Shown piece after piece: positions 4,667 through 10,355 of a stretch of 28,551 bases of DNA (position 1 is its first letter; each line of letters begins with the position of its first letter). A program made the position numbers and the translations under genes. The notes beneath the pieces were generated by a model. That model was not told the DNA's origin. It worked only from the letters and a program-made list of their open reading frames with translations, and did not search any database. Source of the stretch: an uncultured Mycoplasmatota bacterium (GTDB lineage Bacteria; Bacillota_I; Bacilli_A; RF39; UBA660); assembly GCA_946499755.1 (NCBI GenBank), contig CAMMTE010000001.1, positions 1 through 28,551 of the forward strand, read 5' to 3'.

Positions 4667-4704
4667 TTATATTAATAGTATTAACAATAAATATAAATTG
4701 ATAC

Positions 4705-4736
4705 AAAAAGAACTAAGTAATTTAGCTACTTAGTTC
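4705..4736 (-). terminator. Intrinsic terminator overlapping the stop codon of the DGR-target gene
   Basis: GAACTAAGTA-7 nt loop-TACTTAGTTC (10-bp perfect stem) followed by TTTTT. Confidence 0.8.
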
Positions 4737-6606
4737 CAAGAATAAATGGATCAGTTTTAGTTCCATCCCCTCCTGTTATTACTACATTGGATTTTAGATT
4801 TATGGATGGCCGGACACCGCCCGAAATGGTCGGAGCGCTGTAGTACGCAATGCCATCGTAGTACACGTAACGCACGTAAGACGAACTATATGGTGTTAAG
4901 GTCCAATAATTAGTTGTTAACCCTGTACTTGAATAGCTACCTTTTACGGCATATCTTTCAAATTGTCCCGCCATTAATTCTCCAAACCTTAGTAATCCTA
5001 CTTTAGCATTTGTAGTAGTAGAAACTGTACTACTCATATTAGTATCTGTATATTTGGCTAGTTTATATGAATCACTACTTCCTACTGTTCCTAGATACCA
5101 AGTTGTACTATCTTCTATCATATCACTATAAGCATTTCCTACATAATTAGTTAGATATTCCCCATTTAAAAATGTTCCAATTGTATTTGTACTTGAAAAT
5201 GTAGTTGTATCTCCAAATGCACTTATTATAAATGTTCCAGAATTTTTTAGGGGTTCAGCACTAGTTATCTTAGTCAAACCTAAAGTCTCATGACTTACTA
5301 TTCTATATAGATTATTCTCATCATTTCCAAATCTTACATACTCACCACTATATCTACTTGAAAGTAATGTACCTGATAGACTTGTATCATTATCTCCTTC
5401 TAAGCGATAGGGATTTTCTATTGTTCCATTACCATCTACGATACGAACGCTAGATTTTAGATTTATTGATGGCCGGACACCGTACGAATCGGCCGGAGTT
5501 TTGTTGTACGCAACGCCATAGCCGCTCACGCCACGCACGTCAGACGAACTATATGGTGTTAAAGTCCACCAAGTAAGACCATTATTTAAATAACCATTAC
5601 CATATGTAGTTCCTGTATAACTTGTCTGATATTCATATATATTTAAAAGCCCCACGGCTTTGCTTACTGTTGTTGTTCCATTTGGTCTTGTTATACTTCC
5701 TAGACTAGTGGCATCTAATGTAGCATCCCATACTGCATCTGTTACTATAAAGTCCCCATAATTTCTTAAATTACCCAAAAAGCCATCAACACTTGTATCA
5801 TTTAACCATTCTTCCATATAACTTCCTTCAAAATTAGTTTGATTATCAGGATTATAGTTAATTGCACTTATATTCCACTGTGTTACTAACTTAGTAGTAT
5901 TCGCTTCTTTATTAACAGATACTGCTCTCCATAATTTTCCACTATACCATATATAATTATTAGGATCTTCTCCAGTTATAAATGTATCTATCCCATCATC
6001 ATAAAGATTATCTTTAGGTATATTTGCTAACAATGTTTCTGCTACTGTTGGTCTTTCTTGAGATACTTCTACTCTTAACTTACCACTAAATACTTGACCT
6101 GAATAATTTCCATCTACTTCATCTGTTATCCAGAGATTTAAACTATATTTATTAGTTCCTCCTCCTTCTATAGTTCCACTATCTAAGACTCTATTAGGGT
6201 TAGTTCCTGTCTTAGTTAAAAGTGTCGCTCCACTGTCAGTTCCATTCTTATTTAAATTATACTTTAAATACTTATCATCTATTCTTGTATCAGTATCACT
6301 TATTGTATTATCATCTAAATAAATTGTATAATCTACTGCTTTATTCCCATTATTTCTTAATTCAAATGTTGATCCATCTAAAGACATACCTTTACTATCA
6401 CTTATACCTACTGCATTATCTAAACTTATCCCTTCACTTGTTTCATCTAATACTAATTCTAACTCTCCTACTTTTACTATTTGATCTTTACCAGATAATT
6501 GTGTAGAAAAGTATGCATATGTAAGTGCAAGTAATAGAATTATTACTATTAATATACTTATAACTATTACTGTTACCTTTTTCTTTTTATCGTTATCTTT
6601 TTCCAT
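4726..6606 (-). CDS. Surface protein: TasA/camelysin-like N-terminus plus two tandem DUF6273/C-type-lectin-like domains; putative DGR target
   Basis: Basic N-terminus, hydrophobic helix and ALTYAYFS cleavage-type motif. Two homologous domains end in WWTLTP..GVRPSINL and YWTLTP..GVRPSINL, a motif typical of Bacillota DGR target domains. Domain names come from motif recognition, not a search. Confidence 0.75.
   Translation of the reverse strand: MEKDNDKKKKVTVIVISILIVIILLLALTYAYFSTQLSGKDQIVKVGELELVLDETSEGISLDNAVGISDSKGMSLDGSTFELRNNGNKAVDYTIYLDDNTISDTDTRIDDKYLKYNLNKNGTDSGATLLTKTGTNPNRVLDSGTIEGGGTNKYSLNLWITDEVDGNYSGQVFSGKLRVEVSQERPTVAETLLANIPKDNLYDDGIDTFITGEDPNNYIWYSGKLWRAVSVNKEANTTKLVTQWNISAINYNPDNQTNFEGSYMEEWLNDTSVDGFLGNLRNYGDFIVTDAVWDATLDATSLGSITRPNGTTTVSKAVGLLNIYEYQTSYTGTTYGNGYLNNGLTWWTLTPYSSSDVRGVSGYGVAYNKTPADSYGVRPSINLKSSVRIVDGNGTIENPYRLEGDNDTSLSGTLLSSRYSGEYVRFGNDENNLYRIVSHETLGLTKITSAEPLKNSGTFIISAFGDTTTFSSTNTIGTFLNGEYLTNYVGNAYSDMIEDSTTWYLGTVGSSDSYKLAKYTDTNMSSTVSTTTNAKVGLLRFGELMAGQFERYAVKGSYSSTGLTTNYWTLTPYSSSYVRYVYYDGIAYYSAPTISGGVRPSINLKSNVVITGGDGTKTDPFILGTK
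4790..4905 (-). repeat. Putative DGR variable repeat VR-C (C-terminal); variable core 4819-4878
   Basis: 116-nt ungapped copy of 5453-5568 with 20 mismatches, 18 of them in a 60-nt core. Core is 55% GC in an AT-rich gene. Confidence 0.85.
5453..5568 (-). repeat. Putative DGR variable repeat VR-N (internal); variable core 5482-5541
   Basis: In-frame partner of 4790-4905, offset 663 nt (221 codons). Core is 60% GC. Confidence 0.85.
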
Positions 6607-6674
6607 ATCTTAATTCACTCCTAATAATTAGTATATAACTATTTCTATTCTTAATACTCTAATCTTATAATAAA

Positions 6675-6704: not shown

Positions 6705-6762
6705 GCAATATTTATAGTTATGTAAAAAAATAAAATTTATATGAATTTTAAAAATTGCTTGT

Positions 6763-6791
6763 TTGCATTACTTTTTCCCCTATGTTAGAGT
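6763..6791 (+). promoter_or_regulatory. Candidate promoter of the Rpn-family gene
   Basis: TTGCAT-17 nt-TAGAGT with extended -10 TG. Confidence 0.5.
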
Positions 6792-6833: not shown

Positions 6834-7670
6834 ATGAAACAAGAAGAAAAGAAATTTATTAGTCTTTTAAGTGACACTACCTTTAAACATTTCTTTAAAA
6901 TAGAAGACTATAAAGAATTCTTTAATACTATTATTAAACCTATTATAAATATGGATATTAATGATTTTAAATTATATGATACGGAGTTAAACAGTGGTAA
7001 TGAAAAACGTGATTATCGGCTTGATATATTATTAGTAAGTGATTTAGTTGATATAATTATATCAATAGAGATGAATCAGTTTCCTAGTGAAGAGACAAAG
7101 TATAAAGATAGATTATATGTATATGGTTTACTTGCTAAAGGTCTAAATAGTGGTGAAGATATTAAGAAGAAGAAAGTCATTCAAATAAACTTTAATAAAG
7201 AAAAGCATCCTTATGTCAGTAAAGGTTCATTTTATTTAATGGATAAGGTAACTAATAGAGAAATAAAAGATTTTGAAATACACGAAGTGTATCTTGAAAA
7301 TTACAAAGGAATAAGATATAATGGAGACAATAAAGAAGAAGCATATCTATCTTTATTTACTGCTAATTCTTATGAAGAGTTAAGAGAAATAGCAGGAGAT
7401 GATAAGGAGGCATTAAAGATTGTGGATGAATTAGAAAGACTAGGGATTGATGATGAATTTGGAGTAGTCTATGATAATGAGGCAATGCAGAAAAGAATGA
7501 TTAATACTGCTCGTAATTGGGGTTATGATGATGGTAAAGCAGATGGTGCTAGAGCAGAAAAACTTTCTATTGCTAAAAATTTCCTTAAAGATGGTATACC
7601 TATAGAAGTAGTATCTAAAAATACTGGTTTAAGTGTAGAAGAATTAGAAATAATAAATAAAGAAGCATAA
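6834..7670 (+). CDS. Rpn family recombination-promoting nuclease / putative transposase (PD-(D/E)XK, PDDEXK_2-like)
   Basis: LSDTTFKHFF start motif, RLDIL..IEMNQ catalytic core, and the typical tail IAKNFLKDGIPIEVVSKNTGLSVEELE. Confidence 0.85.
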   Translation: MKQEEKKFISLLSDTTFKHFFKIEDYKEFFNTIIKPIINMDINDFKLYDTELNSGNEKRDYRLDILLVSDLVDIIISIEMNQFPSEETKYKDRLYVYGLLAKGLNSGEDIKKKKVIQINFNKEKHPYVSKGSFYLMDKVTNREIKDFEIHEVYLENYKGIRYNGDNKEEAYLSLFTANSYEELREIAGDDKEALKIVDELERLGIDDEFGVVYDNEAMQKRMINTARNWGYDDGKADGARAEKLSIAKNFLKDGIPIEVVSKNTGLSVEELEIINKEA

Positions 7671-7687
7671 CTGCTTCTTTATTTATT
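7652..7687. terminator. Bidirectional terminator between convergent rpn and divIB
   Basis: 16-bp perfect inverted repeat AATAAATAAAGAAGCA-taac-TGCTTCTTTATTTATT spanning both stop codons. Confidence 0.85.
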
Positions 7688-8366
7688 GCATAATCTGAAA
7701 ATGATTTCCAGAATCTAAATATAAATAACCTTTTCTGCCATCTAATTGTGGTAGTACTTCATTATAATAGTCTAATCTTTCAAATTTAGTAATAGTTAAA
7801 TAAACACTATTTCCATCATCCATATATAATAAAAATCTATCTTTATCATAATCATTAGGATCATATTTAATTTCACTAATTTCTTCTCTTATATCTTTAT
7901 CTATTCTTTTATAATATTTAATAAAACTATTTATTTTATTATTAGGTATTTCATTAATTAATCTTGGAATCATATATGGTATATCATTATCTAAAGTTAT
8001 TTCTTCTTTACTTTCTAATACGTATTTACCATTATCTTCTCTTTTATATAGTATTTCATATTCTTCTATTTCAATATCAAAAATATGATAGAAATCTCTA
8101 TTTACATCTACACTTTTTACTAAAGGATTTTCTTTTATTTTCTTTTCTATTGTTCTAGTACTTGTCTTATAGAAACTTGGATAATTAGTAAGTCCTGCTC
8201 TATTAATTATTTCTTCATCAGATATAATATCATTACCAGTAATTATAATATTTTCTACTTTAGTATCTAATAAAAATAATACAACAAAGACAATAATTGC
8301 TATTACTAAGATAAAGATAAGAAATGGTAATAGTCTTAATTTTTTCTTTTTAATTACTTTAGCCAT
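7683..8366 (-). CDS. divIB: Cell division protein FtsQ/DivIB
   Basis: Basic N-terminus, single TM helix, POTRA-like ITGNDIISDEEI..NPLVKSVDV segment, C-terminal GYLYLD. Directly follows murB. Start ATG 8366 with SD GGGAG. Confidence 0.85.
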   Translation of the reverse strand: MAKVIKKKKLRLLPFLIFILVIAIIVFVVLFLLDTKVENIIITGNDIISDEEIINRAGLTNYPSFYKTSTRTIEKKIKENPLVKSVDVNRDFYHIFDIEIEEYEILYKREDNGKYVLESKEEITLDNDIPYMIPRLINEIPNNKINSFIKYYKRIDKDIREEISEIKYDPNDYDKDRFLLYMDDGNSVYLTITKFERLDYYNEVLPQLDGRKGYLYLDSGNHFQIMQ

Positions 8367-8368
8367 AT

Positions 8369-9277
8369 CTACTCCCAATTAACAAATTCTTGTTCTATTT
8401 TTAAATCTATACCATAATGATCTTTTACGGCGTCTTTTACAAATAAAATTAAATCATGTATATCTTTAGCACTAGCATTATTTTTATTAATTATAAAGTT
8501 AGCATGAACTTCACTAACTTCTGCTCCTCCTTTAGTTAATCCTTTAAGTCCAATATCTTCTATTAACTTACCAGAAGGATCAGCATTAGGTGGATTTCTA
8601 AAGACACTACCAGCACTTGGATAATTTAGAGGTTGTGATTTCATTCTTCTTTGCTTTCTATCTTTAACTACTTCTTCTAAAGCACTTTTATCGCCTTTTT
8701 CAAGTCTTATAGTTGCTTCTAAACAGATGTAATTTGGATGAGTCTGCAAGAAACTACTACGATAGTGAAAATCCATCTCTTCATTAGTTAAAGTAATAAT
8801 CTTAAAATCATCTGTTAAGACTTTAACACTTCTTGTAACATAACCCATATCACTCTTATAAGCTCCTGCATTCATATAAATAGCACCACCAATAGTACCT
8901 GGTATACCTGTTGCAAATTCTAAGCCTGCTAAACCTCTTTTAATAGATTCTCTAGCTACCTTCATTAAAGATGCTCCCGCTCCACAGATTATTTTATTAT
9001 CATAAAATTCTATTTTATTAAATTCATCTAACTTAATTAAAACTCCTTCATAAGTCTTATCACTAAATAATAAATTACTTCCATTACCTAATATTTTATA
9101 TTTAATATTATATTTTTTTATCAATTTACATAATAGTACTAACTTTTCTATAGTCTTAGGATAAATAATCGCTCTTACAAGTCCTCCTACTTTATAAGTA
9201 GTATATTTACTTATAAAAACATCTTTAACTATTTTTCCTATATCATTAGATTCTACTTCATTTAAAAATTCTTTCAT
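8369..9277 (-). CDS. murB: UDP-N-acetylenolpyruvoylglucosamine reductase
   Basis: TTYKVGG, LGNGSNLL, GIPGTIGGAIYMNAGAY, QPLNYPSAGSVFRNP and HANFIIN motifs. Confidence 0.97.
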   Translation of the reverse strand: MKEFLNEVESNDIGKIVKDVFISKYTTYKVGGLVRAIIYPKTIEKLVLLCKLIKKYNIKYKILGNGSNLLFSDKTYEGVLIKLDEFNKIEFYDNKIICGAGASLMKVARESIKRGLAGLEFATGIPGTIGGAIYMNAGAYKSDMGYVTRSVKVLTDDFKIITLTNEEMDFHYRSSFLQTHPNYICLEATIRLEKGDKSALEEVVKDRKQRRMKSQPLNYPSAGSVFRNPPNADPSGKLIEDIGLKGLTKGGAEVSEVHANFIINKNNASAKDIHDLILFVKDAVKDHYGIDLKIEQEFVNWE

Positions 9278-9278
9278 C

Positions 9279-10355
9279 TTATTCATCCCCTACTACATCT
9301 AAAATTACATCATATATTTTACTAGCACTATCACTTATCTTCATTTTTAATAATTCTTTGCTCATACTATTTAATTTCTTTTTATCATTAATTAATTTAT
9401 CTACTAAAGGTATTAAAGTATCTTTACTAAAGTTCTCTTCTTCTAGTATTTCTACACCCTTACCTAAAGCTTTTGCATTCTTATATTGATGATTATTAGT
9501 AACATATGGACTAGGTACCATAATAGCAGGTAAACCTATACTAGTAAGCTCTGAGATAGTAGATGCTCCACTTCTAGTAATCATTAAATCTGCATCTTTC
9601 ATAAGAGCGATTAAATTATCATAGAAAGGTAATAGTTTTACATTATTACTTAGTTTTATATCTTTATAATCGTCATAATAGTTCTTACCTGTTATTAATA
9701 ATACTTGATAGTTTTTATTATTAAATAGTGGTAATATTTCTTTTAATTTATTAGTCATAGTTAAAGAACCAAGAGACCCCATTACTATAATTACTAAAGG
9801 TAAATCTTTAATAAAACCTAAAGATGTCTTAGATACTTTTTTAATGTCTTTTATTTGTTCACTTCTAGGATTTCCTGTATATATTACTTTATCTTTAGGA
9901 AAGTATTCACTACTTTCTTTGAAAGACACTAATATTTTATCTACATAGCGAGATAAGAATTTATTAGAAACACCAGGAATAGAATTTTGTTCGTGAATAA
10001 TAGTTTTTATTTTAAGTTTAGAAGCAGAATAAATAACTGGTGCTGATATATAACCACCAAAGCCAATAACGACATCTGGTTTAAACTTAGATAATTCTTC
10101 TTTCGCTTTCTTACAAGCTCTATAATATGTTTTCATTACTTCAATATTTTTAAAAGGATTCTTACGGTTTAAACCTATCATTTTAATACCAACATAATTT
10201 ATATTTTGTTTAGGAATAATATCTTTTTCCATTCTATCAGTTGTACCAATATAAAGAATATCTACATCTTTATCTTTTTCCTTAAGCTTAGAGATTAATG
10301 CTAAAGCGGGAAATATATGTCCACCAGTTCCTCCTGCTGTAATAACTATCTTCAT
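9279..10355 (-). CDS. murG: Undecaprenyl-PP-MurNAc-pentapeptide GlcNAc transferase
   Basis: AGGTGGHIFP, HEQNSIPG, TGNPRS, GSLGS, RSGASTISE and HQYKNA motifs. Confidence 0.97.
   Translation of the reverse strand: MKIVITAGGTGGHIFPALALISKLKEKDKDVDILYIGTTDRMEKDIIPKQNINYVGIKMIGLNRKNPFKNIEVMKTYYRACKKAKEELSKFKPDVVIGFGGYISAPVIYSASKLKIKTIIHEQNSIPGVSNKFLSRYVDKILVSFKESSEYFPKDKVIYTGNPRSEQIKDIKKVSKTSLGFIKDLPLVIIVMGSLGSLTMTNKLKEILPLFNNKNYQVLLITGKNYYDDYKDIKLSNNVKLLPFYDNLIALMKDADLMITRSGASTISELTSIGLPAIMVPSPYVTNNHQYKNAKALGKGVEILEEENFSKDTLIPLVDKLINDKKKLNSMSKELLKMKISDSASKIYDVILDVVGDE

Follow-up and report, generated by a model that had tools for sequence, protein, structure and literature searches.

Gene architecture and the two variable regions

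The stretch analysed here, a window of 28,551 nucleotides (nt) from contig CAMMTE010000001.1 of an uncultured Mycoplasmatota bacterium (assembly GCA_946499755.1), carries on its minus strand a gene of modular architecture that is read in a single frame in the list of open reading frames (ORFs) and its translation (4726-6606, P0001, 626 amino acids, aa). Its product, referred to below as the window protein, comprises an N-terminal signal, a beta-sandwich domain (the N-domain) with a likely distant resemblance to the fibre subunit TasA, and two C-terminal copies of the domain DUF6273 (Table 1); its full-length homologs number over 3,200 at E<=1e-5. An earlier note on this DNA had described a KKKK leader (residues 7-10), a hydrophobic helix (hydrophobic stretch 11-28), the motif ALTYAYFS (27-34), a beta-rich domain of about 150 aa and the motif FSGKLRV (173-179), and each of these elements was found at its place in the sequence and the AlphaFold2 model. 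The same note had proposed a target of diversity-generating retroelements (DGRs) with two variable lectin-like binding sites per subunit; two variable sites of the DGR type, each at the end of a DUF6273 domain on its C-terminal side, are supported by the Pfam matches, the repeats and the template alignment given below.

Pfam DUF6273 (PF19789) was recognised in two stretches (35.9 bits, cut-off 23.5), and the C-terminal ends of the two domains hold 153-nt direct repeats (4760-4912 and 5423-5575, 76% identical) that contain the variable regions (VRs) VR1 and VR2. The two VRs, about 75 nt each, have the same scaffold and 18 positions of difference, although the surrounding domains are only 39% identical. 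These variable patches are GC-rich and A-poor within an AT-rich gene, both VRs retain a GC-rich 3' end, and column entropy among 120 homologs is highest at the VR positions.

Intact loci of this kind are present in two sister genomes, G015 (L029) and G005 (L033), where the target gene, a template repeat (TR), a 112-aa ORF, avd and a reverse transcriptase (RT) gene follow each other in this order. The target in these genomes is a 663-aa protein with the same N-domain, two DUF6273 domains and two VRs, and the TR is non-coding and about 75 nt long. Mismatches between TR and VR affect 13/24, 12/24, 17/26 and 10/26 of the adenines and 2/43, 0/43, 0/41 and 0/41 of the other bases. When the VRs of the window gene are set against these TRs, 16-17 of the 18 differences between VR1 and VR2 lie on adenine columns (Fisher p 7e-8 and 1.4e-8). 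The identification of both sites as DGR variable regions, so that each DUF6273 domain would end in a stretch of about 75 nt written by a DGR, is well supported by these sequence comparisons. Variable patches could also arise by gene conversion or recombination among paralogs, or by ordinary diversifying selection, with no retroelement involved; the genome has at least 15 paralogs with similar flanks, and N-domains have been swapped between genes, as indicated by 82% identity with a gene on contig C2 that has a different C-terminal module. Such an origin is nevertheless highly improbable, given that the VR1/VR2 differences coincide with the adenines of the sister-genome TRs, that the scaffold is identical between otherwise divergent domains, that the patches are GC-rich and A-poor, and that cognate RT-avd-TR cassettes adjoin the orthologous targets.

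The AlphaFold2 model of residues 190-626 (53-row alignment) had a mean predicted local distance difference test score (pLDDT) of 51.2, too low for a fold search or for mapping exposure. Searches with a profile of the two DUF6273 domains against PDB sequences gave no match at E<=10, and hhalign detected no similarity between these domains and the FGE/CLec-type heads of the paralogs on contigs C18, C25, C10 and C2 (probability 0.5%). DUF6273 in phage proteins has been modelled as a C-type-lectin-like fold in which the VR forms a surface hairpin (PMC10743442, PMC11792537). By analogy with the published work on other DUF6273 proteins (PMC10743442), a C-type-lectin fold with exposed variable residues may be expected in the window protein.

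Table 1. Coordinates of the gene and its features in the window
Feature	Position	Strand	Evidence
Whole gene: signal, TasA-like N-domain (likely distant relationship) and two DUF6273 domains	4726..6606	-	ORF list, translation
Residues 1-31: Lys-rich leader, hydrophobic helix, T-Y-A; predicted signal-peptidase cut after Ala31, before YFS	6514..6606	-	Sequence, conservation
Residues 32-185: beta-sandwich N-domain, probable distant TasA/camelysin-like module	6052..6513	-	AlphaFold2, structure match, hhalign, paralog alignment
DUF6273 domain 1, residues ~196-405	5392..6021	-	PF19789, best stretch 254-385; Atlas feature search, DUF6273 clusters at 0.97
DUF6273 domain 2, residues ~406-626	4729..5391	-	Second Pfam stretch; 39% identical to domain 1 (tblastn)
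VR1, residues ~353-378; variable core 5483-5541, variable positions at residues 356-375	5472..5548	-	Register with sister-genome TRs; entropy
VR2, residues ~574-599; variable positions at residues 578-597	4809..4885	-	Same register as sister-genome TRs; entropy
Shine-Dalgarno sequence AGGAG, 11 nt 5' of ATG	6618..6622	-	Sequence reading
Putative terminator-like hairpin spanning the stop codon, ~70 nt 3' of VR2	4709..4737	-	Pattern scan: 12-pair stem, then T-run

The N-terminal domain and its sipW-associated family

Family-wide conservation in the N-terminal part is centred on the end of the hydrophobic region and the residues just after it. Ala31 is conserved in at least 90% of 82 family members (alignment A3), and both Ala31 and Phe33 are invariant in the 120 close homologs. 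The end of the hydrophobic region would fit a signal peptidase I site, and the pattern of SipW-cognate signals (small residue-x-Ala, then x-Phe) is present as L-T-Y-A31/Y-F33-S, with Thr at -3 and Ala31 at -1; cleavage after Ala31 may thus be performed by SipW.

No signal peptidase gene lies in the window, in agreement with the absence of sipW reported in the earlier note, and the search of the genome for sipW and paralogs that the note suggested located the gene on contig C45, together with about 20 genes possessing the N-domain. The C45 gene (C45:4024-4695; TIGR02228, 98.1 bits, cut-off 51.85) encodes the single SipW/archaeal-type signal peptidase of the genome. Directly upstream of it are five tandem genes of about 205 aa, whose products share a short polar leader, a hydrophobic helix and the motif SFAAF[ST]YS, and a sixth, more divergent copy is found directly downstream. 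Aligned with residues 1-190 of the window protein, the six C45 paralogs are 20-26% identical to it and share positions along the whole length. The stretch downstream of sipW (C45:2351-4027) encodes a divergent 180-aa family member without the A-x-F motif, along with two small membrane proteins (239 and 147 aa, no family match) that are candidate fibre anchor or assembly factors.

The AlphaFold2 model of residues 1-195, based on the 82-sequence alignment, reached a mean pLDDT of 86.7 and consists of a helix (5-39) and nine beta strands between residues 42 and 182. Exhaustive structural alignment of the N-domain model with VIA-align placed 8aur_A, the TasA fibre, at the top of 48,161 chains (Z 7.3, root-mean-square deviation 4.2 Å, 139 residues), with the cannula protein CanA and the Pyrobaculum bundling pilin at Z 5.5-6.2. 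At the profile level, hhalign related alignment A3 to A6, a set of 12 small proteins encoded in SipW-containing operons elsewhere in the class, 9 of which pass Peptidase_M73, with 96.7% probability (E 3.6e-10) over only 94 columns, signal included. Against PDB sequences, the A6 profile in turn matched AbpX, TasA (5of1, 8aur) and a further archaeal bundling protein with E-values from 3e-4 to 0.018 (TasA at E 0.014-0.018), and some of the AFDB cluster matches bear the names 'SipW-cognate class signal peptide' or 'Alternate signal-mediated exported protein'.

Several results weigh against a TasA-like, SipW-processed domain. The match to Pfam Peptidase_M73 (PF12389) scored 17.0-17.3 bits (E 0.005), below the gathering threshold of 22.5 bits, and was limited to residues 8-105 (profile positions 3-92), that is, to the first ~100 residues; only 4 of the 82 family members touch this profile at E<=0.1. 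The columns aligned by hhalign include the hydrophobic signal, so this match may be inflated. An NCBIfam scan of the protein returned nothing relevant, with no SipW-signal match at E<=1, and the window gene is located on a different contig from sipW and is not adjacent to it. As for structure, the Z-score of TasA is within 1 of those of diphtheria-toxin receptor-binding domains (Z 6.3-6.9), a range that the tool calls common, and the Foldseek matches listed for the N-domain model against PDB and Swiss-Prot models comprised only generic beta-sandwiches, such as CBM6/35, the diphtheria-toxin R domain and emp24, with no TasA among them. Since the score below the Pfam cut-off points to a distant relative and not to a family member, it is likely that the N-domain represents a distant, SipW-associated relative of TasA/camelysin subunits. 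The TasA/camelysin-like subunit proposed in the earlier note is hence retained as a distant relationship within a SipW-associated family, without Peptidase_M73 membership.

The helix-plus-sandwich 'lollipop' shape of the model would also suit an archaeal type IV pilin-like subunit, in which the helix is retained, the head is a beta-sandwich and assembly is performed by a pilus machine, with no relationship to TasA. Against PDB sequences, the N-domain profile gave only weak matches to archaeal pilins (6nav, E 0.02; 8tib, E 0.12) and transmembrane helices, and 2 of the 82 members touch Pfam Pilin_N at E 0.08. However, there is no prepilin motif before the helix, neither of the G/[FM]-x-x-x-E type (cut after Gly) nor the archaeal [KR]-G/A, as the leader MEKDNDKKKK runs straight into VTVIV, and a canonical KGFTLLE pilin on contig C6 illustrates how the motif looks in this genome. 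Moreover, conservation lies at the end of the helix and not at its start, the paralogs flank a SipW-type signal peptidase I and not a pilus ATPase or platform gene, and type IV pilins are missing from the 50 best structural matches, which TasA heads. A pilin of this type is accordingly a very remote prospect.

The N-domain, a probable beta-sandwich of about 155 aa, belongs to a very large unnamed family whose distant relationship to TasA/camelysin fibre subunits is moderately supported. A profile of its alignment detected 6,581 cluster representatives at E<=1e-3 among 1.84 billion proteins; the domain is always N-terminal in these matches, the proteins range in length from some 200 aa to over 1,700 aa (up to 1,743), and the long members are fused to Big_2, Flg_new (Listeria-Bacteroides repeat), DUF285/leucine-rich repeat (LRR) or other surface modules. 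The hidden Markov model of the family finds about 20 genes in this genome: besides the six on C45 there are two further short genes and at least 13 long ones, and the products of the latter end in two DUF6273 domains, in an FGE-sulfatase-like lectin head, in DUF285/LRR, or in sequence with no match. One of the long members, the C2 gene mentioned above (C2:21210-23003, L016:2211-4004, 597 aa), ends in an FGE-sulfatase-like head instead of DUF6273, and the 82% identity of its N-domain to that of the window protein suggests a recent exchange of modules between family members. In another, of 488 aa (C76:2233-3699, L041), the same N-domain is joined to a DUF285/leucine-rich-repeat (BspA-like) module.

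The window protein may be held at the cell surface in more than one way. One reading is a monomeric adhesin tethered to the membrane or wall, with a helix that either stays uncut as a signal-anchor or is removed so that the protein is released, and with a beta-sandwich that is only a stalk without any fibre. It would be compatible with a monocistronic gene that has its own ribosome-binding site and terminator far from sipW, with the very large cargoes (up to 1,743 aa) that the same N-domain carries, whose Big_2 and Flg_new repeats are characteristic of surface proteins on stalks, and with the unbroken helix drawn by AlphaFold2 at residues 5-39. Nonetheless, the most conserved positions are grouped where the hydrophobic region ends on its C-terminal side (Gly27 in the small subunits, Ala31, Phe33) and in the 20 residues after it, the place expected for a signal peptidase I site and a donor strand, and this counts against such a monomer. 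Furthermore, the only SipW-type peptidase is surrounded by six stand-alone subunits of the same family, and the window protein has no C-terminal anchor motif, so that the tethered monomer appears rather unlikely. Retention by strand exchange with the small C45 subunits, through which the protein would be inserted in a TasA-like fibre or would cap it (at the tip or laterally), is put forward tentatively as a possibility somewhat short of an even chance, and retention through the N-terminus of the protein itself is considered doubtful. Complex prediction for the mature C45 small subunit and the mature N-domain gave a score of 0.00, which counts neither way.

Retroelement cassettes and the state of the locus

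The genome assembly (1.15 Mb, 138 contigs, 68% complete) contains two RT genes, one on contig C6 and one on contig C18, and no RT gene lies within the 28,551-nt window. The C6 RT (C6:20283-21233, RVT_1 74.6 bits) overlaps a 126-aa ORF that is putatively avd by position and size only, and both ORFs are intact. Orthologs of this RT at >=75% identity were found in 11 of 24 sampled genomes of the genus, many of them at contig ends; it is 78-90% identical to the RTs of the sister genomes G015 and G005, and an identity of 90-92% is reached with RTs that adjoin TR-VR pairs in sister genomes. The cassette type cognate to DUF6273 targets is thus an avd-RT cassette, and the C6 copy is, as judged from sequence, the probable cognate retroelement of the window gene; since the gene lies away from this cassette, it would be a remote (trans) target.

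Searches of the assembly with the VRs, the sister-genome TR and its flanks yielded no TR matching the window VRs, a point against the reading favoured below; the matches were confined to VRs of paralogs and to a truncated relic (C21:1-100). The homolog of the 112-aa ORF is cut by the end of contig C6, some 300-600 nt before the position that the TR has in the sister genomes, so that the TR is lacking through an assembly break and is not demonstrably absent. The C21 stretch (C21:1-400) contains the upstream flank and the first ~30 nt of a DUF6273-type TR, followed by a hairpin and an Rpn-family gene instead of the remainder, and looks like the relic of a decayed DGR cassette.

The second RT belongs to another DGR, a complete one on C18 (L013:3797-10040), which targets a protein of 625 aa that combines the same N-domain with a C-terminal VR of the FGE/CLec type (5546-5659). 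Past an unrelated gene on the minus strand, this cassette has a 333-nt unit repeated 4.9 times in tandem (6972-8607); each copy contains a TR-like segment rich in Asn codons, and the avd-like ORF (8614-8985) and the RT gene (8970-10040) lie beyond the array. Comparison of TR1 with the VR showed 13 of 16 substitutions at adenines. An array of several TRs, as in C18, is unusual. Three more genes with a C18-type head, 60-73% identical, are present on C25, C10 and C2.

The state of the window locus was addressed by comparing the gene with contigs from three other DNA studies and one metatranscriptome. Contigs covering VR2 (4700-5070, 4727-5315 and 4748-4937) and VR1 (5449-5572, 5441-5720 and the RNA-derived 5449-5822) showed zero or one difference, and a second database protein, P0002, differs from P0001 at a single residue, 296, outside the VRs. 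VR1 and VR2 are letter-for-letter identical in contigs from the three other studies and in P0002, and these shared alleles mean that no active diversification was seen. The dominant VR alleles are the same across the sampled populations, and rewriting here is rare, tightly controlled, or over.

Almost an even chance is given to the last of these options, a frozen or orphan target whose VRs were DGR-written in the past and whose copy is no longer rewritten, so that the variation in the family would be historical. Besides the identity of both alleles in the three studies and the RNA-derived contigs, and the location of the one P0002 difference, such a state would be in line with the remoteness of the gene from the cassette and with the truncated TR on C21, which indicates that cassettes do decay in this genome. 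On the other hand, the intact RT and avd ORFs on C6, the former close to RTs beside sister-genome TR-VR pairs, keep the rare and the controlled options open, both VRs retain their GC-rich 3' ends, and assembled contigs drop rare variants, so low-frequency diversification is still possible. Short contigs from two chicken-gut metagenomes match both flanks of VR1 and skip a 65-80-nt core (5472-5553); they could represent alternative VR1 alleles, which would count against a frozen target, or the C103/C13 paralogs that share these flanks. Four contigs of a chicken-gut metatranscriptome are identical to parts of the gene, a weak hint that it is transcribed. The public runs containing the gene are chicken-gut metagenomes, and its homologs are named after Candidatus Onthousia, a Bacilli genus of the chicken gut.

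The window gene is flanked on one side by alaS, two kinase-like genes and an AI-2E transporter gene, and on the opposite side by an Rpn-family gene, ftsQ, murB and murG. As these neighbours are housekeeping genes, the locus is chromosomal and not phage-like, as had been proposed earlier. Rpn-family (TIGR01784-like) genes adjoin the window gene (6834-7670, plus strand), the C6 RT (C6:19162-20106) and the C18 target (C18:2711-3664), and one also adjoins the RT of sister genome G015 (L029:6855-7736); the region 5' of these genes recurs as a dispersed repeat (as at window 6736-6775). In a check for systematic adjacency to family genes, 2 of 10 Rpn-like copies could be placed near such a gene on assembled contigs, most copies being near contig ends.

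Proposed role and comparison with known systems

The reading that we moderately favour for the window gene is that of an exported surface protein with a SipW-type signal, a TasA-like N-domain and two DGR-written DUF6273 heads, acting as a variable adhesin or receptor. The protein would be exported by the Sec route, and its signal T-Y-A/Y-F-S probably cut after Ala31 by the single SipW-type peptidase of the genome. The two variable lectin-like heads may then be displayed at the cell surface, where the most likely role would be that of a ligand-binding adhesin or receptor whose two heads vary independently.

TasA forms the biofilm fibre of Bacillus subtilis (PDB 8AUR/5OF1), CalY/camelysin corresponds to Pfam Peptidase_M73, and AbpA/AbpX (7UEG) are archaeal bundling pilins. 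The window protein shares with these systems a signal that ends in a small residue-x-Ala followed by x-Phe, and a genome in which a SipW-type peptidase is flanked by small paralogous subunits. The best PDB match of its predicted beta-sandwich is the TasA fibre subunit (Z 7.3), and the profile comparison suggests a link to Peptidase_M73-positive proteins. In contrast to TasA and CalY, it falls below the Pfam cut-off and aligns by sequence only over its first ~100 residues, its gene is not beside sipW, it carries a C-terminal cargo of 440 aa, and its assembly into fibres is what we infer.

Other systems also join a DGR-diversified head to a surface protein. The tip adhesins BfrT, BthT and BunT of Bacteroides Type V pili have a C-terminal lectin-fold head whose ligand-binding residues are rewritten by a DGR, and an N-terminal module of the pilin type that proteolysis readies for strand exchange; pilus genes are numerous and dispersed in the genome, and some elements are under tight control (bioRxiv 10.1101/2024.11.15.621889). 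The window system, which is known from sequence alone, follows the same logic of a pilin-type base and a DGR-rewritten lectin head. However, its host is a monoderm member of Bacillota, its scaffold would be TasA-like and not FimA-like, each protein has two variable heads instead of one, and the target is remote from the cassette. The window protein also lacks a Type V lipobox or Arg-protease site, with zero Cys in its first 190 residues, and the likeness to Type V pilus adhesins is therefore one of analogy only.

DUF6273 itself has been described in DGR targets of gut phages and prophages, namely the tentaclins of phages nd4 and nd12 (PMC10743442) and targets of Faecalibacterium prophages (PMC11792537). 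These share with the window protein the same Pfam domain and a VR at its C-terminal end. They are, however, receptor-binding or tail proteins with immunoglobulin-like or tail-fibre domains, whereas the window gene is chromosomal, between housekeeping genes, and its product has a SipW-type signal, a domain that is probably TasA-like, and a family of about 20 genes. A single cellular DGR with several surface-protein genes as its targets, some at a distance from the cassette, is known from the TvpA-type system of Treponema denticola, the targets of which are lipoproteins with an FGE-type lectin fold and one VR each.

A full-text search of the literature found no paper linking TasA or SipW with DGRs. 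Already known are DUF6273 as a phage or prophage DGR target and DGR lectin heads on the strand-exchange pilins of Bacteroides; what is combined here is a monoderm host with a SipW/TasA-like base, proteins that bear two variable heads each, a set of about 20 paralogs, and two DGRs for two types of head. DGRs are, to our knowledge, the only prokaryotic system of targeted protein hypermutation, and we know of few roles for cellular, non-phage DGR targets outside Bacteroides Type V pili.

With a genome of ~1.1-1.5 Mb, this organism devotes about 20 genes and two retroelements to one surface-protein family with a shared, probably TasA-like base, and public data contain over 6,500 cluster representatives of this base domain alone. 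Should the base prove to be a fibre subunit, fibres of the TasA type would serve for modular display as well as in the biofilm matrix, and monoderm gut bacteria would have reached the design of a pilin base with a hypermutable lectin head independently. The proteins would be a natural scaffold for two-site binder libraries. In its broadest and more doubtful form, the proposal is that small-genome gut Bacilli build a SipW-processed TasA-like fibre from the small sipW-operon subunits, into which any of a dozen or more alternative adaptor subunits may insert, or which they may cap, each with one or two lectin heads rewritable by two separate DGRs. Such an assembly would constitute a combinatorial, hypermutable adhesive organelle of a monoderm bacterium, the Gram-positive counterpart of the DGR-diversified Type V pili.

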